A stretch of DNA of 64,000 nucleotides from the NCBI GenBank assembly GCA_041494685.1, contig JBGQBE010000006.1, forward strand, positions 16,064 through 80,063. Reading direction: 5' to 3'. Position 1 is the stretch's first letter, and every line of letters starts with the position of its first letter. The translations under genes and the position numbers were made by a program. Positions 4,019 through 46,402 of the stretch are shown piece by piece. Source of the DNA: Dehalococcoidia bacterium. Its GTDB lineage: Bacteria; Chloroflexota; Dehalococcoidia; DSTF01; JACRBR01. The notes beneath the pieces are model-generated. The model was given only the letters and a program-made list of their open reading frames with translations. It ran no database searches and was not told the origin of the DNA.

Positions 4019-6328
4019 CTACGGCGCCCGCCGGCTCCCCGGCAGGTATCCTCCGCTGCCCGTGTCCGGTCCCGCGATCGATCCGCCCGGCGACGGCGCA
4101 CCCGGTCCCGTGTCCGGTCCTCCGTTCCAGTCGGGCGCGCACCCGGCCGCGGGGCAGTCGAAGCGCATGTTCAGCGTGCCCGTCGCGCCGCTGTAGCCGC
4201 CCGCCTGCACGTAGTAGACCGTGTTCGCGGCCAACTCCGCCGTCAGGCTCCCGGCGTCGCTGCACGCCAGCGGCGTCAGCGCGCCGGGGGGTGACATGCC
4301 GTCCATCCGGTACAACGCCATCACTGCTCGGAAGTCACTACCGGCCGCGTCGACCGTCAGCGTCCCGCCACGCTCTCCCGTCGTTGAGCGGTACCACACC
4401 GTTGCGCCGATGTCGCCGCACGGTTGCGCCTCGCCCACCTCCAGCGTCGCCCCGCGCGTGTCAGCGCTGGTCGCATAGGCCGATGGCGAGATCCATTCCG
4501 CGCTGCGGCTGTTGTCGTTATGCGGCGGGCACAATGGGTCGCACTTCCCCTGCACCATCAGCTGGCCGCCAACGCCGTGGACGCCGCCGATCTGGACCCA
4601 CACCTGCGTGTTCGCCTTCACCGCCACCGCCACACGCGCCCGCCCGCCGCTGCCCGGCGCGTCGCACGCCAGCCGCTGCGCCGCCGCGCCCGGTGGTGAC
4701 GATGGCGGCGCGTCGTACACGGCGATCGCCGTGTCGAAATCGCTCTGCGCCGTGTCGAGGACGACGCGCGCGTCGACTTCCGCGTACAGCGTGAACCACA
4801 CGGTGCGGCCCATGGCACCGCAGTCCAGCGCCTCACCCGTCTCCGTCGTCGCGCCGCGCGTGTCGGCCCCGGTGTCGAACGGCTGGTTGCCCGACACGTA
4901 CAATCCGTTTGGCTGCGCCGAACTGTCGCCCCACGGCGGACAGAACTCCGGCAGGCAGTTCCCTGACAGTTGGAGCATGCCCGCGGCCCCGTCGTGCCCG
5001 CCCACTTGCACGAAGTAGTGCTTCAGCGCCTGTGTCGCGAAGGTGACGCGCGCCTGCGCTCCGCCCGCGTCGTCTACGCACTTCAGTGTGCGCAGATCGC
5101 TGAACGCCCGCGACCCGTCCTCCGGCGCCTCGTACACCGCGATGACCGTGTCGAAGCTGCTGGCCGCCGTGTCGAGCATCACGCTGGTGTCACCCGGCAT
5201 CGACAGGTCGTACCAGGTCGTCCGCCCGATGCCGCCGCACGGCTGCGGCTCTCCCGCCTGCGTCGTCGCGCCGACGGTCGAGATCTGATCTTCCCACGGT
5301 CCCGACCCGAACGTGCTTGCACCGTCCAGGTTGTCGTTGTACGGCGGACATCCCGGCTTGCACGCCATGTTCAGCACCAGCCGCCTGTGCGCACCGCCCG
5401 CGCCGCCCGCCTGGATCCAGAACGTCTGGTTGCCCTCGAGGTGCACCGACAGGCTCGATGCCTTGCCGCCGCCGCTGTTGTCGTCGCACGCCAGCGGCGT
5501 CAGCCCGCCCGGAGGTGAGATCGAGACGTCGTTGTAGGCGAAGACCGCCAGCGTCGTGTCGAAGTCGCTGCCGCTCGTGTCCAGCGCCAGGGTCATGCTG
5601 CTCGCGGCGTAGAACGAGTACCACACGGTAGCGCCCGCATTTCCGCATGCTCGCGACTCGCCCGGCTCCAGTGTCGCTGCCGTCGTGTCGGCGCGGTACT
5701 CCACGGCCGGCCGGTACGCGTCCAGGTACGTGTAGGTGCTCATCGCCAGGTCGTCGTTGCCCGGCTTGCACGCCGGGTCGCACGCCGCGTGCAGCTCCAG
5801 CTGCCCGGTCGCGCCCGCCTTGCCCCCGATCTGGATGAAGTACTGCTCGCTCGGCGTCACCGCCAGCGTCAGCGCCGATGTCTGGCCGCCGCCGCTATTG
5901 TCGTCGCAGCCCGCGCTCACCAGGTTCTGTCCGGGCGGCGACGGCACGAAGCCTGTCGCCGTGTAGACCGTCAGCACGGTGTCGAAGTCGCTGCCCGCCG
6001 TCGTGATCGTGATCGTGCCCGGCTGCTCCGGCCGGTACGCGTACCACACCGTCGCGCCCGTCGCCGCGCACGGCGCACTTTCGCCGTCCTCCAGTGTCGC
6101 GCCGGCCGTCGACTGGCTGGCGTCGTACGGCAGCGCGTCGCCGAACTCGGTCTGGCGGATGTCCGTGCCGCGGTTGAAGTTGTCGTTGCCCGGCGGGTCC
6201 GCGGCGTGCGCCGCTGGCGCCCGCCACGGCGCCGTATCGCGGAACGCGGCGAAGAGCGCCGCCACCAGGATGGCGAGCGCGATCGAGAGGATTGCCGCAG
6301 CCGTACGGGATGTGTGTGTGTTGTGCAT
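4019..6328 (-). CDS. large secreted protein with six tandem PPC-like (pre-peptidase C-terminal) beta-sandwich repeats
   Basis: Signal/anchor MHNTHTSRTAAAILSIALAILVAALFAAF (ATG 6328 after GAGGTGG). Six ~115-aa repeats, each with PxNDNF..A..I, DTxGATxExGE(P)xPCG, TVWY, GSDFDT(V/A)LAVY, LACDDNSGGG, YFIQ(V/A)GG..GATGxL motifs, bounded by CxPxC spacers. Confidence 0.8.
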   Translation of the reverse strand: MHNTHTSRTAAAILSIALAILVAALFAAFRDTAPWRAPAAHAADPPGNDNFNRGTDIRQTEFGDALPYDASQSTAGATLEDGESAPCAATGATVWYAYRPEQPGTITITTAGSDFDTVLTVYTATGFVPSPPGQNLVSAGCDDNSGGGQTSALTLAVTPSEQYFIQIGGKAGATGQLELHAACDPACKPGNDDLAMSTYTYLDAYRPAVEYRADTTAATLEPGESRACGNAGATVWYSFYAASSMTLALDTSGSDFDTTLAVFAYNDVSISPPGGLTPLACDDNSGGGKASSLSVHLEGNQTFWIQAGGAGGAHRRLVLNMACKPGCPPYNDNLDGASTFGSGPWEDQISTVGATTQAGEPQPCGGIGRTTWYDLSMPGDTSVMLDTAASSFDTVIAVYEAPEDGSRAFSDLRTLKCVDDAGGAQARVTFATQALKHYFVQVGGHDGAAGMLQLSGNCLPEFCPPWGDSSAQPNGLYVSGNQPFDTGADTRGATTETGEALDCGAMGRTVWFTLYAEVDARVVLDTAQSDFDTAIAVYDAPPSSPPGAAAQRLACDAPGSGGRARVAVAVKANTQVWVQIGGVHGVGGQLMVQGKCDPLCPPHNDNSRSAEWISPSAYATSADTRGATLEVGEAQPCGDIGATVWYRSTTGERGGTLTVDAAGSDFRAVMALYRMDGMSPPGALTPLACSDAGSLTAELAANTVYYVQAGGYSGATGTLNMRFDCPAAGCAPDWNGGPDTGPGAPSPGGSIAGPDTGSGGYLPGSRRAP

Positions 6329-6374
6329 GTACCACCTCTTGCGCCCGGTGGTACTCATACAACGCTCCAGCCTG

Positions 6375-6402
6375 TAAAAAGGTGAACGGCTCAACAGCCG
6401 TT
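6375..6402 (-). terminator. rho-independent terminator of the lipoprotein gene 6391..7848
   Basis: On the minus strand, hairpin AACGGCTgttgAGCCGTT (7-bp stem) overlaps the stop codon and is followed by CACCTTTTTA. Confidence 0.55.
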
Positions 6403-7848
6403 GTGTTCCGCTGCCGGGCACACCGCGTAGAACGCCGCCGCGCCCCGCTGCCAGCCGTCCCGCGTTCGCGCGTCCAGCGCCGCCGCGCCGTCTTTCCGCC
6501 AGCGATAGACCGGCGCCGTGCGCACCGCGCCGCCCGCGGCCGCCGCGTACGCGTAGAACGCCGCCGGGCCGCCGCCCGCCGCGTCGAGCGTGTAGTCCCC
6601 GTCGCGCTCGTACACCGCCGCCAGCCCGGGCGCCGGCCCGGCCGACGCGTAGAACGCCACGCCGCCGTCACCGTAGCCGTCGCCGGGCGACGCCGCCGCG
6701 TAGCGCGGCGCTCCGCTGTCCGGCAGCCACTCGTGGATCGCCACGCCCAGGTGCAGTTCCACGAGCGTCACGTCGTACGGCTGCTGGCTCGAAAACGTCA
6801 GATACACCGTCGCCAGATCCTGCGTCAGCTCGTGGTGCAGCTCCGCGCTGTAGCAGTATGGGTACACGTCCTGTACCAGGGGCCGGCAGTCGAACCACGC
6901 CGTCGGTGCGGACCACGGCCCCCACGGCTGCGGCGCCGTGCGCACCTCCACGCTCGCCATCGACGCGCTCACCACCGCCAGCCACTGCCCGCTCGCCGCG
7001 TCGAAGCTGACGTTCGCCCCGTTGTCCGCCGGGAACGCCGTCGCCGGCGACGTCCAGAGCGGCTGCGCATCCTGCGCACGCGGCGACCACGCCGTGCCGG
7101 TCCAGTAGGTGTAGGCCGCCGCCTCGCCCATCCGCGCGATCGGCGCGCGCGCGGCGTAGTTGTTGCCCCCGTCAGTGTGCAGGAACACGACCACGTCGTC
7201 GCCCACTCGCACCGGCGACCGCGCGCCCGACACCCGCGACCCGAAGCCGCTGCGCTCGTCCCAGATCGTCTCTACCTCGCGCGTGCCGTTCGTCGTGCCC
7301 GCCGCCATCCGCCCCATGCCGACGCCGCTCACGTACCACGCGAACGGCGACGTCCGCGTCACCTTCACCATGTAGAACGCGATGCTGCCATCGTCCAGCG
7401 CCAGCACGCCATCTGGCCACGCCGTCGTCTCGCTCAGCCGCGGGAACATCGGCTCGGCGAGGCCGCCCGCCTTCTTGAAGTCGAGCTTCACGCAGTCGTG
7501 CGCATCAACGTCCGCCGACGTCGCGATCGCCGCCGGGATCACCTCCTGCCGGCCGCCGGGGCCGTCGCGCAGGGTATCGCCGAAGAACCAGTAGTCGCGC
7601 CCGCCCACGGCCACGCTGGGCGCGCCGTCCGCGCCGCGCACTTGCGCCACTACCGAGTCCGGGTTGTCGGCTACGAGACGGCAGACCGTGCGCATCGCCA
7701 CGACGACGGGTGCGGTGCTCTCGGTCGCGGCGTCAGGGCGTGTGGTTGGACCCGCGGCGTGCCCACCGGGCGAGTTGGAACACGCCGCGAGCCACGCGGC
7801 GACGACGCACAGCGCGAACGCCATCCGGGGAGCGGGATGTCGTGTCAT
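6391..7848 (-). CDS. secreted lipoprotein, beta-propeller/glycosyl-hydrolase-like (possibly DUF4185-like; family uncertain)
   Basis: Lipoprotein signal MTRHPAPRMAFALCVVAAWLAACSNS (ATG 7848 after GGAAGGGGGA); YWFFGDT motif; W/Y-rich mature region; coding-like codon bias. Confidence 0.6.
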   Translation of the reverse strand: MTRHPAPRMAFALCVVAAWLAACSNSPGGHAAGPTTRPDAATESTAPVVVAMRTVCRLVADNPDSVVAQVRGADGAPSVAVGGRDYWFFGDTLRDGPGGRQEVIPAAIATSADVDAHDCVKLDFKKAGGLAEPMFPRLSETTAWPDGVLALDDGSIAFYMVKVTRTSPFAWYVSGVGMGRMAAGTTNGTREVETIWDERSGFGSRVSGARSPVRVGDDVVVFLHTDGGNNYAARAPIARMGEAAAYTYWTGTAWSPRAQDAQPLWTSPATAFPADNGANVSFDAASGQWLAVVSASMASVEVRTAPQPWGPWSAPTAWFDCRPLVQDVYPYCYSAELHHELTQDLATVYLTFSSQQPYDVTLVELHLGVAIHEWLPDSGAPRYAAASPGDGYGDGGVAFYASAGPAPGLAAVYERDGDYTLDAAGGGPAAFYAYAAAAGGAVRTAPVYRWRKDGAAALDARTRDGWQRGAAAFYAVCPAAEHNGC

Positions 7849-35970: not shown

Positions 35971-37179
35971 ATGCCTGAATACCAGCAGACGGTGATGTTC
36001 GAAGCGGAAGTGCGAGAGCTGAAGCAGGAAGAAGAGCGTAGGGAGGCCATCATGAGCAGGGGGTACACGGACGGACTGCCACCGATCAAGGTCGTCGGCG
36101 TGGGCGGCGGCGGCTGCAACGCCGTCAACCGCATGATCGCCGAGAAGGTGCCGGGGGTGCAATTCGTGGCGGTGAACACGGACGCGCAGGCGCTGCAGCA
36201 GTCGCAGGCGGAGGTGAAGATCCGCATCGGCGACAAGCTGACGAAGGGGCTGGGCGTCGGCGGCGACCCGAACCGCGGCCTGCGGGCGGCGGAGGAGAGC
36301 CGCGACGAGCTGCTGGAGGCCGTGCGCGGCTGTGAGATGGTGTTCGTGACGGCCGGCATGGGCGGCGGCACGGGCACGGGCGCGGCGCCCATGGTGGCCG
36401 AGGTGGCGAAGGAGGCCGGCGCGCTGACGATCGGCGTCGTCACGAAGCCGTTCGGCTTCGAGGGCGCGAAGCGGCGCGCGCAGGCGGAAGAGGGCATCCA
36501 GCGCCTGCAGGACAAGGTCGACACGCTGATCATCATCCCGAACGACCGGCTGCTCCAGATCTGCGACGAGAAGGCCACGGTCGAGGACGCGTTCCGCACG
36601 GCGGACAACATCCTGCTCCAGGGCATCCGCGGCATCAGCGAGATCATCACGCTGCCCGGGGAGATCAACCTGGACTTCGCGGACGTGCGGAAGATCATGT
36701 CGGACGCGGGTCCGGCGCTGATGGCGATCGGCCGGGCGAGCGGCGCGAACCGGGCGGCGGACGCGGCGATGATGGCGATCAGCAGCCCGCTGCTGGAGGT
36801 GTCGATCGACGGCGCGCGCGGCGTGCTGTTCAACATCAGCGGCGGCAAGAACCTGGGGCTGCACGAGATCAACGCGGCGGCGCAGGTGATCCAGGACGTG
36901 GTGGACCCGAACGCGGAGATCATCTTCGGCACGGCGATCGACCCGTCGCTGGGCGACGAGGTGCAGATCACGCTGATCGCGACCGGGTTCGCGCGACCCG
37001 TGGCGGTGCACCCGATCCCGGAGCAGTACCGCAAGCGGAACCCGGACGACGACGCGGGCACGGACGGCGACGAGCCGGCCGAGCAGGAGCCCGCACACGC
37101 GCAGGCGCAGGCGGCGACGCCGGACCCGCGCGACACCGAGCTACCGACGTTCCTGCGCCGCACCGTCGCGGCGCGCTAA
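35971..37179 (+). CDS. ftsZ: cell division GTPase FtsZ
   Basis: [17 protein letters not shown]...; GGGTGTG tubulin signature; GGAGGAGG RBS. Confidence 0.95.
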
Positions 37180-37255: not shown

Positions 37256-37322
37256 CTTTCCCCCACCAGGGAAAGAACAGGGCCGTGAGCGTCGTAATTG
37301 GGAGATGACGACGCTCACGGCC
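37256..37322 (+). terminator. two consecutive GC-rich stem-loops downstream of ftsZ (likely dcw-cluster terminator region; no U-tract)
   Basis: CTTTCCCccaccaGGGAAAG (37256..37275) and the perfect 15-bp stem GGCCGTGAGCGTCGTaattgggagatgACGACGCTCACGGCC (37281..37322). Confidence 0.45.
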
Positions 37323-37543: not shown

Positions 37544-37606
37544 CACTACATCTAGCGCCACGTTCACTCAGAAGCCGTTGACAAGCACTAGATGTAGTGC
37601 TAACCT
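37544..37606 (+). promoter_or_regulatory. two NrdR boxes overlapping a sigma70-like promoter (-35 TTGACA 37578..37583, -10 TAACCT 37601..37606) upstream of nrdR
   Basis: Box1 CACTACATCTAGCG (37544..37557) and box2 CACTAGATGTAGTG (37586..37599) match the NrdR-box palindrome aCACwAtATaTwGTGt; centres 42 bp apart; box2 lies in the -35/-10 spacer. Confidence 0.6.
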
Positions 37607-37686: not shown

Positions 37687-38334
37687 ATGCAGTGCCCATT
37701 CTGCAGCAACCCCGACTCCCGCGTGGTGGACTCCCGCGACGTTGACGGCGCGATCCGCCGCCGGCGCGAGTGCCTGAACCCGGCGTGCGCGTCGCGTTTC
37801 ACCACGTACGAGCGGGTGCAGGCGGTGGCGATCTACGTCGTGAAGAAGGACGGGCGCCGCGAAGAGTTCTCGCGCGAGAAGCTGCTGGGCGGGCTGCGGA
37901 GAGCCTGCGAGAAGCGGCCGCTGGCCGCGGGCGCGGTCGAGGCGCTGGCCGCGGACATCGAGTCCGCGCTGTACGCGTCGAACGCGGCGGAGGTGCCGTC
38001 CAGCGTTGTGGGTGAACTGGTGATCGAGCGGCTGCGCGACCTGGACCCGGTCGCCTACGTACGGTTCGCCAGCGTGTACCGCCAGTTCGCCGATGTCGAT
38101 TCGTTCCGGGAAGAACTGGAGGCGCTGGCTTCCGGCACGCGGCCCGCACAGGCCCAACTGCCGTTGCTGGACGCGGAGTTCTCCCCCACCTCTCTTCGGC
38201 TGCGACCGGCCGCACCGAATTCACGAACCCGTACCCGCCGCCCGGTGCGGCCGGTGCAGACTCCTGTCTCCATTGCGGAGCAGGCTGCGCCGCGGGGGCC
38301 GTCGAAGAGGGCGAAGAACGCGCGCCAGGCGTAG
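37687..38334 (+). CDS. nrdR: transcriptional repressor NrdR (zinc ribbon + ATP-cone) with an unusual ~55-aa low-complexity C-terminal extension
   Basis: MQCPFCSNPDSRVVDSRDVDGAIRRRRECLNPACASRFTTYERV...VVKKDGRREEFSREKLLGGLRRACEKRP... then tail ...RPAAPNSRTRTRRPVRPVQTPVSIAEQAAPRGPSKRAKNARQA. Confidence 0.9.
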   Translation: MQCPFCSNPDSRVVDSRDVDGAIRRRRECLNPACASRFTTYERVQAVAIYVVKKDGRREEFSREKLLGGLRRACEKRPLAAGAVEALAADIESALYASNAAEVPSSVVGELVIERLRDLDPVAYVRFASVYRQFADVDSFREELEALASGTRPAQAQLPLLDAEFSPTSLRLRPAAPNSRTRTRRPVRPVQTPVSIAEQAAPRGPSKRAKNARQA

Positions 38335-38373
38335 GACAGCCCGCCGCGGCGGGAGTGCAAGGAGAGCAATCGC

Positions 38374-38763
38374 GTGCGCATGGAAGGCAAGCTGACGAAC
38401 GCAGGCGGCGAGTTCATCGCCAGCGGCCCGTGTGAGGTGAACCGGGACCGCGGCGAGGTGACGATGTGGCCCTCGTGGGAGTTGCACATGCTGGAGCGCG
38501 AGCGCGGCGCCCTGACGCTGGAGCTTGAGGACGGCACGCAGCTGGCGATCAGCGACAAGCATTTGACGTTCAAGCTGCGCGGCCCGGCCGAGCAGCGGAT
38601 CTCCGTGTACCGGCTGCGCGTGATCGAGCGCGTGCCGGAGCACCTGGCCACGGGGTACGCCGCACCGGCGCAGGATGCGCCGGCCGCGGCGGCCGACGCG
38701 GAAGACGCCGCGGCCGTGCCCGACAACGTGGTGCGCATGGAGCGCACACAGCCTTCCCAATAG
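38374..38763 (+). CDS. hypothetical protein (129 aa), nrdR-nrdJ operon member
   Basis: GTG start 7 nt after GGAGAG; strong GC3 bias; MRMEGKLTNAGGEFIASGPCEVNRDRGEVTMWPSWELHMLERERGALTLELEDGTQLAISDKHLTFKLRGP...; no recognised domain. Confidence 0.55.
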   Translation: MRMEGKLTNAGGEFIASGPCEVNRDRGEVTMWPSWELHMLERERGALTLELEDGTQLAISDKHLTFKLRGPAEQRISVYRLRVIERVPEHLATGYAAPAQDAPAAAADAEDAAAVPDNVVRMERTQPSQ

Positions 38764-38802
38764 CAGCACGGCCCGCGATGTGCGGGGCGCAGGAGGCAGG
38801 GA

Positions 38803-39093
38803 GTGCCGAACGTCGAGCTCTTCATGGATGAAGTCGTGACCGGACTCCGGCGGCGTCTCGCGCTGCTGGGCGACAGCGGCGACCGCCGCGCGATCGAGGA
38901 TGGCATCGCGCTGCTGACCCGCTACCGTCTGCGCGGCATGGATGAAGCGCGGTTTGAGATGCTGCTCTCGACCCTGCGCGCGGGGCGCACGCCGGACGGT
39001 CAGCCCGTGCTGAAGCCGGCCCTGCTGGCCGGAGAGCTGGCGCGGCGGTGGGACGCCTTCGCCGGAGGCACCGCCTACCCGGCACGGAACTAG
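38803..39093 (+). CDS. hypothetical protein (96 aa), nrdR-nrdJ operon member
   Basis: GTG start after AGGAGG; GC3 bias; predicted helical MPNVELFMDEVVTGLRRRLALLGDSGDRRAIEDGIALLTRYRLRGMDEARFEMLLSTLRAG... Confidence 0.55.
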   Translation: MPNVELFMDEVVTGLRRRLALLGDSGDRRAIEDGIALLTRYRLRGMDEARFEMLLSTLRAGRTPDGQPVLKPALLAGELARRWDAFAGGTAYPARN

Positions 39094-39193
39094 AAGCAGC
39101 AAGCACGGCGCCGTCCAATCGCTGCGGGGCGAGGGCGGCGCCGATGTATTGCGGGGAAGCGTGGACTTAGCGCTTCGATAGGTGGGAGGAAAC

Positions 39194-39463
39194 TTGAGCG
39201 CGACTGTTGCAATGGACCCGGCGTTAAATCAGGCTGTGGCTGACCTGAGCGCGGACGTGATCGCGTTCCTGCAACAGGTCCACGACGGCGTCGCCGAGGA
39301 CGTGCGCGCGACCGCCGCATACCACCAGCGGAGACTGCGGGAGTTCGTGCGCGCCACGGGTGTGACGCTCAACGACCTCCCCGCATGGCAGGCGAACAGC
39401 ACGGCATGGCGCGCCATCGCGAGGCTCGCCAGTCCGGTGATGACGGCAACACAGGCAGGCTAG
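39194..39463 (+). CDS. hypothetical protein (~89 aa), nrdR-nrdJ operon member
   Basis: TTG start 4 nt after GGTGGGAGG (track start 39182; alternative ATG 39212); (M)SATVAMDPALNQAVADLSADVIAFLQQVHDGVAEDVRATAAYHQRRLREFVRATG... Confidence 0.5.
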   Translation: MSATVAMDPALNQAVADLSADVIAFLQQVHDGVAEDVRATAAYHQRRLREFVRATGVTLNDLPAWQANSTAWRAIARLASPVMTATQAG

Positions 39464-39485
39464 CAAGCGAAAGGAATCCCGCGTC

Positions 39486-42272
39486 ATGGTCCTCCAGGCC
39501 GAGCCCGAAGCCCGCAGATCGCTGAACGGAACCGCATGCACCGTCGAGCGCTTCTTCACGCGCTCCGGGGATGATCCGTTCAACGATCTCGCGTGGGAAT
39601 ACCGGACGGCCGTCATCGCCGACGAGACGGGCAACGCGTTCTTCGAGCAGAAGGACGTGGAGATCCCGAAGGCGTGGTCGCAGACCGCGACCAACGTCGT
39701 CGTGTCGAAGTACTTCCGCGGCCCGCTCGGCACCGACCGGCGCGAGCGCAGCGTGAAGCAGATGATCGGCCGCGTGTCCGACACGATCACCCGCTGGGGC
39801 GTGAAGGACGACTATTTCGAGAGCGCTGAAGAGGCGCAGACGTTCCATGACGAGCTGACGCACCTGCTGGTCCACCAGAAGATGGCGTTCAACAGCCCGG
39901 TGTGGTTCAACGTCGGCGTCGAAGAGAAGCCGCAGTGCTCGGCGTGCTTCATCCTCTCCGTGGACGACACGATGGAGTCGATCCTCGACTGGTGCAAGAC
40001 GGAGGGCATGATCTTCAAGGGCGGATCGGGCAGCGGCATCAACCTGTCGCCGATCCGGTCCAGCAAGGAGCAGCTGTCCGCCGGCGGCCAGGCAAGCGGG
40101 CCGATCTCCTTCATGCGCGGCGCGGACTCGATCGCCGGATCGATCAAGTCGGGCGGCAAGACGCGGCGCGCGGCGAAGATGGTGGTGCTGAACGTCGACC
40201 ACCCGGACGTCGAGGAGTTCATCGACTGCAAGGTGAACGAGGAGCGGAAGGCGCTGGCGCTGGGCGAGGCCGGCTGGGACATGTCGTTGAACGGCGACGC
40301 CTGGTCGTCGATCCAGTTCCAGAACGCCAACAACTCCATCCGCGTGTCCGACGAATTCATGCGCTCGGCGGTCGAAGGCCGCCCCTGGCAGCTTCGATCG
40401 GTGCGAGATGGCTCGGTAGCGAACGAAGTCAACGCCCGCGATCTGCTGAACCGGATGGCGGCCGCGGCGTGGGCCTGCGGCGACCCCGGCATGCAGTACG
40501 ACACGACGATCAACGACTGGCACACGTGCGCGAACACGGCGCGGATCAACGCGAGCAACCCGTGCTCGGAGTACATGCACGTGGACAACAGCGCGTGCAA
40601 TCTGGCGTCGCTCAACCTGATGAAGTTCATCGATGACGACGGCGTCTTCGACTCCGAGTCGTTCCGACGCGCGGTGACGGTGACGATCTGGGCGCAGGAG
40701 ATCATCGTCGGCAACTCCAGCTATCCGACGCCGAAGATCGCGGCGAACACGATCGCGATGCGTCAGCTCGGCCTCGGCTACGCGAACCTCGGCGCGCTGC
40801 TGATGTCGCTGGGACTTCCGTACGACTCCGACGCGGGCCGCGCGTACGCCGCGGCGATCACCGCGCTGATGACGGGACACGCGTACGCGACGTCCGCCGC
40901 GATCGCGCAGCGGGTCGGCCCGTTCGACGCCTTCCACCTGAATCGCGAGCCGATGTTGCGGGTAGTTGCGAAACATCGTGACGCTTCGCGTACAATACAG
41001 ACGGCGCATGTGCCGTCGGCGTTGATCGGCGCAGCGCAGCAAGCGTGGGATGACGCGTTGGAGTCTGGACAGAAGTTTGGTTACCGCAACGCGCAGGCGA
41101 CGGTGCTGGCACCGACCGGGACGATCGCGTTCATGATGGACTGCGACACCACGGGCGTGGAGCCGGACATCGCGCTGGTGAAGTACAAGAAGCTCGTCGG
41201 CGGCGGCATGATCAAGATCGTCAACCAGACGGTGCCGCGCGCGTTGAAGCGCCTGGGCTACGGTGCGCCGGAAGTCGAGCAGATCGTGAAGCACATCGAC
41301 GCCACCGGCACGATCGAGGGCGCGCCCGGCCTGCGCGACGAGGACCTGGCGGTCTTCGACTGCGCGTTCAAGGCGGAGAACGGCAAGCGCTCGATCCACC
41401 ACATGGGCCACATCAAGATGATGGGCGCAACGCAGCCGTTCATCTCCGGCGCGATCAGCAAGACGGTGAACCTGCCGAACGAGGCGACCGTCGAGGACGT
41501 GGCGGACACGTACGTGGAAGCGTGGCGGCACGGCGTCAAGGCAATCGCCATCTACCGCGACGGCTCGAAGACGGTGCAGCCGCTCTCGACGTCGAAGTCG
41601 TCATCCGGGACGGGCGCCGCGGCGGCGGAGCCGGCGCAGCCCGTGCGGCGGAAGATGCCGGACACCCGAAGCTCGCTGACGCATAAATTTTGCATCGAGG
41701 GCCACGACGGCTACATCACCGTCGGGCTGTACGACGACGGCACGCCAGGGGAGATCTTCCTCTCGATGGCGAAGCAGGGCTCGACGGTGAGCGGCCTGAT
41801 GGAGGCGTTCGGCCGGGCGATCTCGTACACGCTCCAGTACGGCGTGCCGGTGCAGGACCTGGTGCGGAACTTCGCGCACATGCGGTTCGAGCCGATGGGC
41901 CGGACGGAGAACCGGGACATCCCGGTGGCGCAGTCGATCATCGACTACGTGTTCCGCTGGCTTGCGAGCCGCTACATGTCGCCCGGCGACGCGTACGAAG
42001 TCGGCGTGATGACGCCGGAGATCAAGGCCGCGCTGGCGGCCGGACAGTACCCGCTGCCATTGGCGGGAGCGGTCGCGCCGGTGGCGGGTGGCAGCGAGAG
42101 CGCGCCAGCCGCGACGCTGGGCGCGGGGACGGCCGTGCCGGCGATGTACCAGGCGCCGCGTGCCAACGGGCACGCCGATGCGCCTGCGTGCGCCAGCTGC
42201 GGCTGGATCATGATTCGGTCGGGGACGTGTTACCGCTGTGAGAACTGCGGTAGCACGAGTGGCTGCTCCTAA
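39486..42272 (+). CDS. nrdJ: adenosylcobalamin-dependent (class II) ribonucleoside-diphosphate reductase NrdJ
   Basis: 928 aa; ...FEQKDVEIPKAWSQTATNVVVSKYFRG...PQCSACFILSVDDTMESILDWCKTEGMIFKGGSGSGINLSPIRS...; C-terminal Cys-rich zinc ribbon CASCGWIMIRSGTCYRCENCG. Confidence 0.95.
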   Translation: MVLQAEPEARRSLNGTACTVERFFTRSGDDPFNDLAWEYRTAVIADETGNAFFEQKDVEIPKAWSQTATNVVVSKYFRGPLGTDRRERSVKQMIGRVSDTITRWGVKDDYFESAEEAQTFHDELTHLLVHQKMAFNSPVWFNVGVEEKPQCSACFILSVDDTMESILDWCKTEGMIFKGGSGSGINLSPIRSSKEQLSAGGQASGPISFMRGADSIAGSIKSGGKTRRAAKMVVLNVDHPDVEEFIDCKVNEERKALALGEAGWDMSLNGDAWSSIQFQNANNSIRVSDEFMRSAVEGRPWQLRSVRDGSVANEVNARDLLNRMAAAAWACGDPGMQYDTTINDWHTCANTARINASNPCSEYMHVDNSACNLASLNLMKFIDDDGVFDSESFRRAVTVTIWAQEIIVGNSSYPTPKIAANTIAMRQLGLGYANLGALLMSLGLPYDSDAGRAYAAAITALMTGHAYATSAAIAQRVGPFDAFHLNREPMLRVVAKHRDASRTIQTAHVPSALIGAAQQAWDDALESGQKFGYRNAQATVLAPTGTIAFMMDCDTTGVEPDIALVKYKKLVGGGMIKIVNQTVPRALKRLGYGAPEVEQIVKHIDATGTIEGAPGLRDEDLAVFDCAFKAENGKRSIHHMGHIKMMGATQPFISGAISKTVNLPNEATVEDVADTYVEAWRHGVKAIAIYRDGSKTVQPLSTSKSSSGTGAAAAEPAQPVRRKMPDTRSSLTHKFCIEGHDGYITVGLYDDGTPGEIFLSMAKQGSTVSGLMEAFGRAISYTLQYGVPVQDLVRNFAHMRFEPMGRTENRDIPVAQSIIDYVFRWLASRYMSPGDAYEVGVMTPEIKAALAAGQYPLPLAGAVAPVAGGSESAPAATLGAGTAVPAMYQAPRANGHADAPACASCGWIMIRSGTCYRCENCGSTSGCS

Positions 42273-42316: not shown

Positions 42317-42565
42317 ATGGCTGTAGCAGCGAAGAAGCCGGCAGCGAAGAAGCCGGCCGCCAAGAAGAAGCCAGCGGCCAAGAAGGCTGCGGCGAAGAAG
42401 CCGGCCGCCAAGAAGGCTGCCCCCAAGAAGAAGCCGGCGGCGAAGAAGCCGGCCGCCAAGAAGAAGCCGGCCGCCAAGAAGGCTGCCCCCAAGAAGGCAG
42501 CAGCGGCGAAGTCCCGAACCGCCAAGAAGCCGGCCGCGAAGCGCAAGCCGGCGGCGAAGAAGTAA
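42317..42565 (+). CDS. histone H1/AlgP-like lysine-alanine-rich nucleoid-associated protein (KAPA/AKKPAAKK repeats)
   Basis: MAVAAKKPAAKKPAAKKKPAAKKAAAKKPAAKK... 82 aa; strong RBS GGAGG; DNA is a tandem 24-30-nt repeat; the opposite-strand ORF (AAGFF repeats) is its shadow. Confidence 0.8.
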   Translation: MAVAAKKPAAKKPAAKKKPAAKKAAAKKPAAKKAAPKKKPAAKKPAAKKKPAAKKAAPKKAAAAKSRTAKKPAAKRKPAAKK

Positions 42566-42979: not shown

Positions 42980-43052
42980 AACCCGCCGAAGGGTCAGGTG
43001 GCGTCCTGAGCAGGGACGCTCCCCGCCGCCCCCTTCGGCGGGTTTTGCTCTC
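42980..43052 (+). promoter_or_regulatory. structured RNA leader / terminator-like element upstream of the modE-like-tupABC operon (possible riboswitch-like attenuator)
   Basis: 14-bp closing stem AACCCGCCGAAGGG...CCCTTCGGCGGGTT enclosing two hairpins (TCAGGtggcgtCCTGA; GGGAcgcTCCC), followed by TTTTGCTCT; AT-rich -10-like CATAAT/TAATAT at 42924..42932 upstream. Confidence 0.4.
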
Positions 43053-43104
43053 CCCCCGCGAGCGCCCCTGTAACGAGTCACCCGTTCGCTGTAACCTTCC
43101 CCGC

Positions 43105-43440
43105 ATGGAGCCACGCGCCAAGGTCTGGGTGGAGAAGGACGGCCGCATCGTCCTGAGCGACTATCGCGTGCGGCTGCTCGCGCTGATCGACGAGACCGGC
43201 TCGCTGTCCGAGGCGGCAGGACGGATGCAGCTCTCGTACCGGCGGGCGTGGGGCAAGGTGAAAGAGATCGAGCAGAACCTGGGAGCCAAGCTCGTCGAGA
43301 GCGCCACCGGCGGCGCCGGCGGCGGCGGCTCGAAGCTGACGCCCGAGGGGCGGCGGCTGGTCGAGACGTACGAGCGCTTCCGTACGGCGGCGGAGCAGGA
43401 CCTGACGCGCGACTTCACACGCGCATTCCGGGGCGACTGA
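43105..43440 (+). CDS. ModE-like N-terminal winged-helix (molybdate/tungstate-responsive) transcriptional regulator, standalone DNA-binding domain
   Basis: MEPRAKVWVEKDGRIVLSDYRVRLLALIDETGSLSEAAGRMQLSYRRAWGKVKEIEQNLGAKLVESATGG...KLTPEGRRLVETYERF; track ORF from 43045 has a short extension. Confidence 0.75.
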   Translation: MEPRAKVWVEKDGRIVLSDYRVRLLALIDETGSLSEAAGRMQLSYRRAWGKVKEIEQNLGAKLVESATGGAGGGGSKLTPEGRRLVETYERFRTAAEQDLTRDFTRAFRGD

Positions 43441-43507
43441 GCGGCCCGGGCCAGCTGACAGCCCACAGCGCTTCTCATTCGTGCTAGACGGTGGCTCGCG
43501 GCGGCGC

Positions 43508-43525
43508 TATGCTCGCGGGAGCATA
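43508..43525 (+). promoter_or_regulatory. 18-bp palindrome TATGCTCgcggGAGCATA upstream of tupA (candidate operator)
   Basis: 7-bp perfect arms ~30 nt upstream of the tupA start, downstream of the modE-like gene. Confidence 0.35.
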
Positions 43526-43553
43526 TCCGATTGCAGTTGAGGGAGGAGCCCCC

Positions 43554-44471
43554 GTGAGACTACGGACGATGGCGCTGGCGGCGGTTGCGCTGCTGGCACT
43601 GATAACAGCGGCCGCGTGCGGCGGCGACAGCAAGAGCAGCGCGACGGCGACACCCGCCGCGACGAGCGGACCGACCACCGCGCCGACGCCGGCGATCACG
43701 AAGGCGAGCGGCACGCTGATCCTGGCGACCACGACGAGCACGCAGGACAGCGGCCTGCTGGACCTGCTCGTACCGATGTTCCAGGACCAGTACGGGTACA
43801 CCGTGAAGACCGTCGCCGTCGGCTCCGGGCAGGCGATCCAGCAAGCGTCCAACGGCGACGCCGACGTGGTGCTGGTGCACTCGCCGGCGGCGGAGCAGAA
43901 GATGGTCGATGCGGGCGAAGGCATCGAGCGGACGCTCGTCATGCACAACGACTTCATCATCGTCGGGCCGAAGGACGACCCGGCGGGCGTGGCCGCGGCG
44001 AAGACGACGAACGAAGCGATGCAGGCGATCGCGACGAAGGGTGCTCATTTCATCAGCCGCGGCGACAATTCCGGCACGAACGCGCTGGAGCTGACCCTCT
44101 GGAAGGCGATCAGCGTGACGCCGAAGGGGCAGCCGTGGTACGAGGAGTCGGGGCAGGGGATGGGCGCGACGCTGCAGATCGCGAACCAGAAGAACGCGTA
44201 CACGATCAGCGATCGGGCGACGTTCCTGGCGCAGAAGTCGCAGCTTTCGCTGCAGATCCTGTTCCAGAAGGACAGGGCGCTGCTGAATGTCTACCACGTG
44301 ATCGTCGTGAACCCGGCGAAGCACCCGAACATCAACCTGGCGGCCGCGCGCGCGTTCGCGGCGTTCCTGGTGCGGCCGGACGTGCAGGCGGCCATCGGCA
44401 ACTTCGGCGTGGACAAGGCGGGCGAGCCGCTGTTCGTCGCGGACGCCGGCAAGCCCGACCCGACGAAGTAA
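43554..44471 (+). CDS. tupA: tungstate/molybdate ABC transporter substrate-binding lipoprotein, TupA-like
   Basis: GTG start 5 nt after GGAGGGAGGAG; signal MALAAVALLALITAAACGG; TupA signature LILATTTSTQDSGLLDLL. Confidence 0.8.
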   Translation: MRLRTMALAAVALLALITAAACGGDSKSSATATPAATSGPTTAPTPAITKASGTLILATTTSTQDSGLLDLLVPMFQDQYGYTVKTVAVGSGQAIQQASNGDADVVLVHSPAAEQKMVDAGEGIERTLVMHNDFIIVGPKDDPAGVAAAKTTNEAMQAIATKGAHFISRGDNSGTNALELTLWKAISVTPKGQPWYEESGQGMGATLQIANQKNAYTISDRATFLAQKSQLSLQILFQKDRALLNVYHVIVVNPAKHPNINLAAARAFAAFLVRPDVQAAIGNFGVDKAGEPLFVADAGKPDPTK

Positions 44472-44558
44472 GTCGCGGCAGGGCCGCGTTCGTAGTACGT
44501 TGCGGCGGCCGGAGCGATTCCGGCCGCCTGTACTAGCCGGGCTGTTCGGAGGGACGCC

Positions 44559-45329
44559 GTGGAGCTGATCTGGGAGGGCCTGCGCGACGCGCTGCGCATG
44601 CTGGCGCACAACGAGGGCCACGTCTACGAGATCGCGTGGCGGTCGGTCTACGTGTCCGGCACGGCGACGATCATCAGCCTCCTGCTGGGCGTCGGCGCCG
44701 GGGCAGTGATCGCCTTCCGGCGGTTCCCGGGGCGGCTGGTCGTGCTGACGCTCGTGAACACGGGCATGGGCTTCCCGCCCGTCGTCGTCGGACTCGTGGT
44801 GGCGATCCTGCTCTGGCGGAGCGGGCCGCTGGGCGACCTCGGCTGGATCTACACGCCGCGGGCGATGATCATCGCGCAGGTCGTGATCGCGACGCCGGTG
44901 ATCGTCGGATTCACCGCTGCGTCGCTGGCGGCGCTGCCGGCGAAGCTGCGGCTGCAGGTATACGCGCTCGGCGCTTCCCGGCTGCAGATGCTGTGGATCG
45001 TGCTGCAGGAGGTGCGGCTGCCGCTGCTGGCGGCGATCATGGCGGGCTTCGGCGCGGCGATCTCGGAAGTGGGCGCCTCGGTGATGGTGGGCGGCAACAT
45101 CTCGGGGCAGACGCGCGTGCTGACCGGCGCGATCCTGCTGGAGCAGAGCAAGGGCAACTTCGGCATCGCGCTGGCACTGAGCATCGTATTGCTGGCGATG
45201 ATGGTGGCGGTGAACGCCCTGTTCACCTGGGTGCAGTTCAGCGCGCGGCGTGACCGCTGGCGCGCAGCGGGAGACGACGCGCACGACGGCGGCGCGCGGC
45301 CGATCTCATCACCATGGCTGCCGCGCTGA
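44559..45329 (+). CDS. tupB: tungstate/molybdate ABC transporter permease
   Basis: Polytopic ABC permease (...RLQMLWIVLQEVRLPLLAAIMAGFGAAISEVGASVMVGGNI...); assigned by family and operon context. Confidence 0.75.
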   Translation: MELIWEGLRDALRMLAHNEGHVYEIAWRSVYVSGTATIISLLLGVGAGAVIAFRRFPGRLVVLTLVNTGMGFPPVVVGLVVAILLWRSGPLGDLGWIYTPRAMIIAQVVIATPVIVGFTAASLAALPAKLRLQVYALGASRLQMLWIVLQEVRLPLLAAIMAGFGAAISEVGASVMVGGNISGQTRVLTGAILLEQSKGNFGIALALSIVLLAMMVAVNALFTWVQFSARRDRWRAAGDDAHDGGARPISSPWLPR

Positions 45330-46402
45330 CCGTGCCAAAGCTGGCCGTGCGCGGGCTGATCGTACGACGCGACGGCCGCGCGATCGTCGACGTGCCGTCG
45401 CTGGACGTGCGCGCGGGCGAGGTGCTGGCGGTGATCGGGCCGAACGGCGCGGGCAAGAGCACGCTGCTGCTGCACCTGGCGCTGCTGGAGCGCCCGGATG
45501 CCGGCGAGGTGCTGTTCGCGGGCGCGCCGGCGCGCCGGCGCGATCTCGCGCTGCGGCGGCGGATGGCGGTGGTCTTCCAGGAGCCGCTGCTGTTGGACCG
45601 CGGCGTCCTGGCGAACGTCGAGACGGGGCTGCGCCTGCGCGGCGTGCCGCACAACGAGCGGCGGCAGCGAGCGCTGCGCTGGCTGGCACGCTTCGGCGTC
45701 GATGCGCTGGCGGGGCGGGCCGCCCACACGCTGAGCGGCGGCGAGGCGCAGCGCGTGAGCCTGGCGCGAGCGTTCGCGCTGCAACCGGAGGTGCTGCTGC
45801 TCGACGAGCCGTTCAGTGCGCTGGACACGCCGACGCGCGAGGCGATCACCGGCGACCTGGCCGGCGCGCTGCGGGAGACGCACGTGACGACGGTCATCGT
45901 GACGCACGACCACGACGAAGCCGCGCGGCTGGGCGAACGCGTCGCGGTGCTCATCGGCGGCCAGATCCGGCAGACGGGGACGCCGGCGGAGGTTTTCGGC
46001 GCGCCGGCGGACGAGGACGTTGCGGCGTTCGTCGGCATCGAAACGATCTTCCTGGCGACCGTCACCTCGCGGGCTGACGGCATGGTGACGCTGGCGGCGG
46101 GCGCGCACACGATCGAGACCGTGGACGCGGGCAGCTTCGGCGCGGCGCTGGTGTGCCTGCGGCCCGAGGACATCAGCATCTCCGCGCCTGGCGAGCGGCC
46201 GGCGGACAGCGCGCGCAACCGGCTCGCGGGCCGCGTGCGGCGGGTCGTGCGCACGGGCGCGGACGCGCGCGTGGAGGTGGACTGCGGCGTCGTGGTGACC
46301 GCGCGCGTGACGCGGCGGTCGCTCGACGAGCTGGCGATCGCCGAGGGCGCCGAGGTGGTGGCGTCGTTCAAGGCGACGGCGGTGCACCTGATCCCGAAGT
46401 AG
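45314..46402 (+). CDS. tupC: tungstate/molybdate ABC transporter ATP-binding protein with C-terminal TOBE/Mop domain
   Basis: Walker A GPNGAGKST, signature LSGGEAQRV, Walker B LLLDEPFSALD; C-terminal TOBE region. Confidence 0.85.
   Translation: MAAALTVPKLAVRGLIVRRDGRAIVDVPSLDVRAGEVLAVIGPNGAGKSTLLLHLALLERPDAGEVLFAGAPARRRDLALRRRMAVVFQEPLLLDRGVLANVETGLRLRGVPHNERRQRALRWLARFGVDALAGRAAHTLSGGEAQRVSLARAFALQPEVLLLDEPFSALDTPTREAITGDLAGALRETHVTTVIVTHDHDEAARLGERVAVLIGGQIRQTGTPAEVFGAPADEDVAAFVGIETIFLATVTSRADGMVTLAAGAHTIETVDAGSFGAALVCLRPEDISISAPGERPADSARNRLAGRVRRVVRTGADARVEVDCGVVVTARVTRRSLDELAIAEGAEVVASFKATAVHLIPK

Follow-up and report, generated by a model that had tools for sequence, protein, structure and literature searches.

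A previously unannotated protein family encoded beside the repressor gene nrdR in a predicted class II ribonucleotide reductase operon of Dehalococcoidia

What do three small genes of no known family do between the gene for the repressor NrdR and the gene for a ribonucleotide reductase (RNR)? The question is raised by a 64,000-nucleotide stretch of DNA from a Dehalococcoidia bacterium (contig JBGQBE010000006.1), referred to here as the window, in which nrdR (37687-38334, + strand, 215 amino acids (aa)) and nrdJ (39486-42272, + strand, 928 aa), the latter encoding a class II (adenosylcobalamin) RNR, enclose three open reading frames (ORFs) on the same strand. orfA (38374-38763) encodes 129 aa from a GTG start, with a predicted beta-barrel core and a disordered acidic tail rich in Ala and Pro, and orfB (38803-39093) encodes 96 aa, also from a GTG. 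orfC ends at 39463 and may start at GTG 39182, TTG 39194 or ATG 39212, giving a protein of 83-93 aa; the ATG (83 aa) is the start chosen in the public gene call on contig JBGOWU010000007.1 of the metagenome-assembled genome (MAG) GCA_041478795.1, which matches the window. From nrdR to nrdJ the intergenic gaps are 39, 39, 88-118 (depending on the start of orfC) and 22 bp. The analysis described below shows that orfA is a previously unannotated protein family specific to nrdR neighbourhoods and that the trio is not a unit: orfA is universal, whereas orfB and orfC are clade-specific and dispensable.

One reading is that some or all of the small ORFs are chance open frames. The region has a G+C content of ~67-72%, DNA of ~70% GC yields long spurious ORFs, and several of these overlap the region on the minus strand; in addition, the start of orfC is ambiguous, and orfC is absent or fragmentary in about one third of the related loci described below. 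Against this, the GC content at codon positions 1, 2 and 3 is 0.72, 0.48 and 0.92 in orfA, 0.77, 0.51 and 0.87 in orfB and 0.69, 0.51 and 0.80 in orfC, with the minimum at position 2 that is typical of genes; the third-position value (GC3) of nrdR, nrdJ and ftsZ is 0.87-0.96. This pattern fits the plus-strand frames and is not seen in the overlapping minus-strand ORFs. Shine-Dalgarno-like sequences (GGAGA, AGGAGG and GGGAGGA) precede the three ORFs, and the ribosome-binding sites and GC3 bias (0.80-0.92) with which an initial annotation of the window had credited them are borne out at the coordinates given above, the start of orfC being ambiguous. A search of 5.8 billion proteins returned 302 homologues of orfA, 99 of orfB and 13 of orfC, all of them unnamed or 'hypothetical' and all from MAGs of Dehalococcoidia/Chloroflexota and metagenomes. 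They share invariant blocks: TMWPSWE.HMLER, SDKHLTFKL and RISVYRLR in orfA, LALL.D.GDRRAIEDGIALL in orfB, and LNQAVADLS and TGWRAIARLA in orfC. The median pairwise ratio of nonsynonymous to synonymous substitution rates (dN/dS) is below 1 for each gene, at 0.27 for orfA, 0.46 for orfB and 0.58 for orfC, next to 0.18 for nrdJ, 0.20 for the nrdR core and 0.23 for ftsZ; these Nei-Gojobori values are comparative only, as dS is probably underestimated in codon-biased, high-GC DNA. The constraint on orfA is similar to that on its housekeeping neighbours, and the constraint on orfB and orfC is weaker. In addition, orfA and orfB are both modelled with confidence by AlphaFold2. It is very unlikely that orfA and orfB are non-genes, and chance frames are a far-fetched explanation for any member of the trio.

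The absence of recognisable domains noted in the initial annotation also holds. No match to orfA, orfB or orfC was found in Pfam, NCBIfam, PADLOC, PHROGs or PDB profile searches, and sub-threshold matches to DUF2063, EAD1 and NigD_N were dropped as inconsistent between members. None of the three turned out to be unconserved, to lack a codon signal or to belong to an unrelated known family. A literature search turned up no account of these proteins or of any protein partner of NrdR.

The company that the three genes keep was followed by scanning genomes, one representative for each GTDB species, with the orfA alignment as query. The scan gave 29 loci (L004-L032), all from Chloroflexota/Dehalococcoidia MAGs except for one small contig binned as Thermoanaerobaculia. 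The order ftsZ-nrdR-orfA-(orfB)-(orfC)-nrdJ is kept on one strand in 29/29 loci as far as the contigs reach, and since the same gene order recurs in all of these species-level genomes the arrangement is beyond chance. NrdR is 212-224 aa long throughout the clade, and in the 28 clade loci with a contig long enough to show it a class II RNR gene always lies 3′ of orfA. With the window included, hidden Markov models (HMMs) detect orfA in the nrdR-nrdJ interval of 30/30 loci, orfB in 28/30 and orfC, the least conserved of the three, in ~20/30, several times as a fragment. A fourth small family, orfD, occurs between nrdR and orfA in 7/30 loci (L007, at 5714-5986, L011, L012, L015, L017, L026 and L032) and is absent from the window; it is a Cys-rich protein of 91-97 aa with conserved Cys pairs (CxxC ... 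C.C) and a TAWVR motif. Because the presence of orfB, orfC and orfD varies by locus, the trio is one configuration of a variable slot. In distant lineages this slot is occupied by other, unrelated small ORFs, and none of the distant orfA loci retrieved has orfB, orfC or orfD. Conservation beside nrdR and nrdJ in related genomes, which the initial annotation proposed as a check, holds for orfA, which is tied to nrdR in distant lineages as well, and in part for orfB and orfC, which stay within the clade.

orfB and orfC are unrelated to each other. In lower-GC Dehalococcoidia-like contigs (L045 from 958, L046 from 1975, L048, L049 from 3050, and L080) nrdR is followed directly by nrdJ. The NrdR of these contigs is 174-184 aa long, has a motif of the QLPLIP type and ends in a short basic stretch, and their NrdJ has a conserved N-terminal extension of ~130 aa (ARIVF..AESMGI.DR.L.EKLT..V..RLE ... 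PLPGMEELV). The idea that orfB and orfC are split-off pieces of this extension was rejected on HMM comparison and an hhalign probability <1%.

The tie between orfA and nrdR reaches well beyond the clade. When 1.84 billion representative proteins were searched exhaustively with a profile, the orfA family came to only 44 clusters at 50% identity, some of them distant (25-47% identity). The core signature common to the distant members comprises N9, E13, A16, G18, C20, G45, L47, L49, L51, G54 and Y79-R80, of which C20 is nearly invariant. One apparent relative, P0274 (1977 aa), was discarded as a spurious match to Ig-like repeats. Ten distant relatives were looked up, one of which had no record, and in all nine contigs retrieved nrdR is immediately upstream of orfA. 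The seven complete nrdR genes among them encode proteins of 204, 204, 213, 214, 214, 216 and 241 aa; in L033 and L037 the contig lacks the 5′ part of nrdR but retains the tail. In three pairs (the P0259 contig, L039 and L125) nrdR and orfA overlap by 4-11 bp. Genes packed this closely, in some cases with the start codon of one overlapping the stop codon of the other, typically encode proteins that are produced in a fixed ratio and act together, and the direct adjacency and occasional overlap of the two genes suggest that orfA and NrdR are made in fixed proportion. As a control, metagenomes were scanned with generic NrdR peptides, which gave 80 diverse NrdR loci; none of the 80 has an orfA-family match on either strand, and their NrdRs are mostly 148-170 aa long. 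orfA is accompanied by a long NrdR directly upstream in 38/38 contexts, and the converse fails.

This distribution bears on the possibility that the small genes are unrelated passengers, for example division or nucleoid proteins, that exploit a replication-coupled promoter. In the window the operon has the dcw/ftsZ cluster and an H1-like gene as neighbours, ftsZ precedes nrdR in the clade as well as in some distant loci (L041, L125), the nrdR-nrdJ slot takes different unrelated ORFs by lineage (orfB, orfC, orfD and ORFs of 69-90 aa), and constraint is relaxed in orfB and orfC. However, orfA stays behind nrdR in the four of nine distant contigs in which the gene 5′ of nrdR is not ftsZ (opposite-strand Tad/TadE genes in the P0259 contig and L039, an Oxidored_molyb gene in L034 and an NRD1_2-family gene in L038). 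In none of its 38 contexts is it found elsewhere, an association much tighter than hitch-hiking predicts. For the small genes as a group, passengers are an unlikely explanation; gene by gene, orfB and orfC may plausibly be passengers, and orfA is unlikely to be one.

The reading favoured here, tentatively, is that orfA is an adaptor that binds NrdR and modifies its oligomer switching or its operator binding. The repressor has been described as switching between oligomeric states in a nucleotide-dependent manner and binding to operators (PMC9110341). Contact would be made by protein-protein interaction, plausibly through the basic C-terminal tail of NrdR; orfA would tune the nucleotide-dependent switching or the DNA binding, and thereby adjust the release of the class II RNR operon from repression, the interaction and the direction of its effect both being conjectured. 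orfB and orfC would be younger, clade-restricted add-ons under weaker constraint. The two presumed partners are electrostatically complementary, with a net charge of about -6 for orfA and, across relatives, a mean of +9 for the NrdR tail. The suggestion in the initial annotation that the small proteins are RNR accessory or regulatory factors likewise comes from neighbourhood, and it stands as such; fold and sequence similarity give no biochemical function.

AlphaFold2 predicts orfA, from a 30-sequence alignment, as an all-beta barrel over residues 1-90 (core ~95 residues), with per-block predicted local distance difference test (pLDDT) scores of 72-91, followed by a disordered tail (residues 100-129), and orfB as a four-helix bundle (pLDDT 83). 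All relatives are uncultured, and these fold assignments are models and not solved structures. The orfA model is a small beta-barrel with PilZ-like topology at best, outside the PilZ family: the Pfam PilZ model (PF07238) matches no orfA-family member, and in Foldseek comparisons flavin mononucleotide (FMN)-binding split barrels and protease half-barrels reach scores similar to those of PilZ-type folds. A metal site made up of one Cys and three His in orfA was considered and rejected, as the His residues are invariant in the clade only and are lost in distant members.

Several observations weigh against orfA as an NrdR adaptor. Foldseek against the PDB gives nothing better for orfA than E=0.036 or a template modelling (TM) score of 0.43, and the PilZ cyclic di-GMP motifs RxxxR and [DN]xSxxG occur together in 0/52 family members; because the fold match is weak and the PilZ motifs are absent, the word adaptor rests on gene context and not on homology. 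The set of 29 loci was seeded on orfA and says nothing of clade genomes that lack it. Long or motif-bearing NrdR tails occur without orfA in L050 and, in shorter form, in L045, L048 and L049, and since the same QLPLL-plus-basic architecture is found without orfA, the tail does not require it. In a mirror-tree analysis controlled for phylogeny the partial r of orfA is 0.02 with the NrdR tail, which is nil, 0.30 with the NrdR core and 0.16 with NrdJ, so that the analysis did not discriminate between a role directed at NrdR and one directed at NrdJ. A role directed at NrdJ also fits the synteny nearly as well, with a class II RNR following in almost all loci.

As an NrdJ helper, orfA (possibly with orfB and orfC) would load or protect adenosylcobalamin, dock a reductant at the Cys-rich C-terminus of NrdJ, or act in trans as an activity regulator that replaces the ATP-cone. 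According to Pfam domain calls the ATP-cone is missing from the window NrdJ, and C20 of orfA is kept even in distant members. Other RNR classes have small operon-encoded helpers, namely NrdI, NrdH, YfaE and NrdG, and a class II RNR gene lies downstream of orfA in every reachable clade locus and, either directly or one unrelated small ORF further, in 6/9 distant contigs (L033, L034, L037, L043, L125 and L126). On the other hand, orfA adjoins nrdR and not nrdJ, with variable unrelated ORFs between orfA and nrdJ. In L038 nrdR and orfA remain adjacent and the RNR is displaced, its fragments lying ~3.4 kb away past opposite-strand genes, and many control nrdR-nrdJ loci, other Dehalococcoidia included, do without orfA. 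The searches showed no signature of redox function (CxxC) or of flavin or corrinoid binding: orfA, orfB and orfC contain no CxxC motif, and they have no match in Pfam or NCBIfam to the known RNR accessory families (flavodoxin-like, glutaredoxin-like CxxC, 2Fe-2S and radical-SAM proteins). A helper of NrdJ is possible but rather doubtful, and an adaptor of NrdR remains the preferred reading.

Some further features of distant orfA members and their loci were noted. Short conserved peptides stand at the C-terminal end past a long disordered linker, with the sequence (G)ET[PS]AAR in one group and PPE[LF]RR in another (P0257, P0259, P0265, P0266, P0270, P0273; P0247, P0249, P0250); the orfA proteins of the window clade have a weaker VR.ER motif at the same place. 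Judged by sequence, these peptides look like docking peptides. In L033, nrdR and orfA are separated by 514 bp (530-1043) filled with several copies of a ~100-bp GC-rich repeat with palindromes (GGGAGTGCAGAG..GCGCAGCGCC..CCGGGGGG), which looks like a repetitive extragenic palindromic (REP) or miniature inverted-repeat transposable element (MITE)-like sequence inserted in the operon. In L034 the class II RNR gene (4269-7844) harbours an intein that includes a LAGLIDADG endonuclease (Pfam Intein_splicing and LAGLIDADG_3).

The identity of the two flanking genes is clear. NrdR scores 183.1 bits over residues 1-147 with the TIGR00244 model (cut-off 124.65) and matches PF22811 and PF03477 over their cut-offs; it consists of a Zn-ribbon (aa 1-42), an ATP-cone (aa 49-136) and a conserved basic tail (aa 148-215). 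NrdJ scores 1428 bits with NF005122 (cut-off 859), matches PF08471, PF02867 and PF12637, and has a TSCPD domain and a Cys-rich C-terminal end. The basic extension past the ATP-cone recorded in the initial annotation is real, and its length needs correction from ~55 to ~68 aa, counted from the end of the TIGR00244 model. Pairwise identity among 28 clade NrdRs averages 0.67 for the tail and 0.75 for the core, and the dN/dS of the tail is 0.47. All 28 tails share AQLP[LF]xD.PEF.P.SLRLRPAAP..RTRTRRPVRPVQTPV. In the window this corresponds to Q157-L-P-L-L161 (38155-38169, + strand, placed by the alignment of orfA-linked NrdRs), followed by D and later by EF, and to the Arg-rich motifs SLRLRPAAP (aa 169-177) and RTRTRRPVRPVQTPV (aa 180-194), which lie at 38191-38268 (+ strand) and are nearly invariant in the clade. 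A C-terminal extension of NrdR is known as such; the conserved linear motifs within it are new in this lineage.

The first of these motifs resembles a known docking sequence. The canonical beta-clamp-binding motif is Q-phi-x-[L/M]-[F/L] or Q-phi-x-[L/M]-x-[F/L], usually in a disordered region, and a negative charge after it is favourable (PMC11139829). Q157-L-P-L-L161-D in the window fits this pattern exactly and is a candidate clamp-binding motif, the tail peptide around Q157, L160 and L161 being AQAQLPLLDAEF. Q and the +3 residue (L or F) are present at the aligned position in 34/34 orfA-linked NrdRs, distant ones included, in variants that comprise QLPLL, QLALL, QLTLI, QPPLI, QPTLL, QPPLL and QLPLF; an acidic or Pro residue follows, and later an Arg-rich run. 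About half of the 34 obey the clamp pattern strictly and 27/34 in relaxed form, with 7/34 deviating (QLPLS, QLPFR, QLSFK, QLPFA, QLPLP, QLPLD). If Q-L-P-L-L docked NrdR on the sliding clamp, with the Arg-rich segment and orfA as modulators, repression of the only RNR operon would be coupled directly to active replisomes besides the sensing of dATP and ATP. Like the clamp ligands Pol II, Pol IV, Pol V, Hda and MutL, the NrdR tail combines Q-phi-x-[LM]-[FL] with an acidic residue in a disordered region; unlike them, about one fifth of the NrdR relatives break position 5, and conservation reaches well past the five residues. NrdR is not known as a clamp ligand, no paper linking it with a clamp-binding motif was found, and clamp docking is considered quite improbable. 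Were it to hold, orfA would be the first dedicated NrdR co-factor, and the C-terminal part of NrdR would gain a role.

The control region is consistent with a single transcription unit. The NrdR-box core has just two good matches in the region, both 5′ of nrdR: box 1 at 37544-37557 (+ strand, core CACTACATCTAGCG) and box 2 at 37586-37599 (+ strand, CACTAGATGTAGTG), which form a 17-nt inverted-repeat pair 26 nt apart. A putative promoter can be assigned around box 2 at 37578-37606 (+ strand), with TTGACA at 37578-37583, a 17-nt spacer that contains box 2, and TAACCT at 37601-37606; the -10 hexamer TAACCT is weak, and the promoter was not called by a consensus promoter scan. Overlapped by the box pair, this promoter would drive nrdR, orfA, orfB, orfC and nrdJ together. 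The module is probably a single transcript because of its gene order, short gaps and conservation and because internal boxes and predicted terminators are lacking. Between nrdR and nrdJ no terminator on the + strand is called by the consensus scan. Further NrdR boxes or promoters inside the operon, in front of nrdJ, were rejected as none occurs in the window or the 29 related loci, and the box pair is confined to the region upstream of nrdR in nearly all loci. The original description of small ORFs set on one strand with short gaps, apparently behind a single NrdR-box promoter, is upheld, and the arrangement recurs in related genomes. A riboswitch or other RNA element between the genes was also rejected, as Rfam families have no match in the intergenic regions.

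The distance between the boxes sets the clade apart. It is 42 bp (41-43), about four turns, in 29/30 clade loci (L004-L032 and the window) and 30-31 bp in distant orfA loci; canonical NrdR boxes stand about three helical turns apart, and the linker given in the literature is 15-16 bp (PMC12176259). A correlation of the 42-bp spacing with orfA was rejected in view of the distant loci. The spacing is a clade trait that goes with a change in the Zn-ribbon of NrdR. In the window NrdR the first knuckle is C3-x2-C6 and the second C29-x4-C34 (CLNPAC, codons 29-34, 37771-37788); all four Cys are present, and binding of Zn is a prediction. The second knuckle is C-x4-C in 27/27 clade NrdRs, compared with C-x2-C in 80/80 controls and in 6/6 distant orfA-linked NrdRs. 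This coincidence, seen at the level of sequence, suggests co-adaptation of the DNA-binding domain and the operator geometry, and the clade offers a natural experiment on the match between the geometry of the NrdR tetramer and that of its operator. One control locus, L068, has an 831-aa open frame (to ~4870) with an NrdR-like match at 2379-2846, a Zn-ribbon and an ATP-cone that run on in frame into a long class III RNR-like sequence, which could be a fusion of NrdR with an anaerobic RNR or an assembly artefact.

Upstream of the operon lies a complete dcw cluster on the + strand (murD ... ftsQ, ftsA) that closes with ftsZ (35971-37179), separated from nrdR by a spacer of 507 bp. About 100 nt past the ftsZ stop a hairpin (37281-37322, + strand) has an 18-bp stem with 94% complementarity and a 6-nt loop, without a U-tract; it is possibly a terminator, a processing site or a boundary between the dcw/ftsZ and nrd transcripts. 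On the other side, 44 bp past nrdJ, an 82-aa Lys/Ala/Pro-repeat protein with AAKKPAAKK repeats is encoded at 42317-42565 (+ strand). It has weak HC2/H1-like matches under the cut-off, a similar gene is found 3′ of nrdJ in L009, L028 and L031, and the gene may be on the same transcript as nrdJ. Further downstream (~43045-46400, + strand) a ModE-like helix-turn-helix gene is followed by a molybdate/tungstate-type ATP-binding cassette transporter made up of a periplasmic binding protein, a permease and an ATPase with TOBE domains, as judged by Pfam matches in the identical public contig.

NrdR is the master repressor of deoxynucleoside triphosphate synthesis in most bacteria and is studied as an antibacterial target. 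Recent structural papers leave the role of its variable C-terminal part unassigned. In the lineage described here NrdR has a long tail with fixed linear motifs and is genetically coupled to orfA, a family found only beside nrdR. The pair provides a handle on whether partner proteins, besides nucleotides, modulate the repressor.

The fold of orfA can be compared with that of the PilZ and split beta-barrel adaptors (PlzA, YcgR, MotI and PilZ proteins that do not bind cyclic di-GMP), from which it differs in having no PilZ hit, no PilZ motifs and no significant fold match. A second comparison is with the small helpers encoded in other nrd operons: the flavodoxin NrdI and the redoxin NrdH of class Ib, the ferredoxin YfaE of class Ia and the activase NrdG of class III, which serve the assembly of the cofactor or the reduction of the catalytic subunit. 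Like these, orfA, orfB and orfC are small proteins encoded inside an nrd operon; unlike these, they show no kinship in sequence or fold to the helpers and no redox or cofactor motif, and orfA tracks nrdR and not the catalytic gene. We know of no operon-encoded helper for a class II RNR, and if orfA did serve NrdJ it would, to our knowledge, be the first.

The closest known system is nrdRJ of Streptomyces coelicolor, where the NrdR repressor is co-transcribed with a class II RNR (Borovok 2004, as cited in PMC9110341) and palindromic NrdR boxes overlap the promoter (PMC9110341). In both systems nrdR comes first with nrdJ downstream on one transcript, two boxes lie over the promoter, and the repressor controls itself and the reductase, the transcript, promoter and control being predictions in the window; S. 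coelicolor NrdR resembles the window NrdR in its Zn-ribbon, its ATP-cone and a C-terminal part of unassigned function. The system described here differs in having one to four small genes between nrdR and nrdJ, boxes 42 bp and not ~31 bp apart, a second knuckle of the C-x4-C and not the C-x2-C type, and a longer NrdR tail (~68 aa) with conserved linear motifs. The locus is best explained as a variant, found in Chloroflexota, of the nrdR-nrdJ operon already known to be autoregulated by NrdR.

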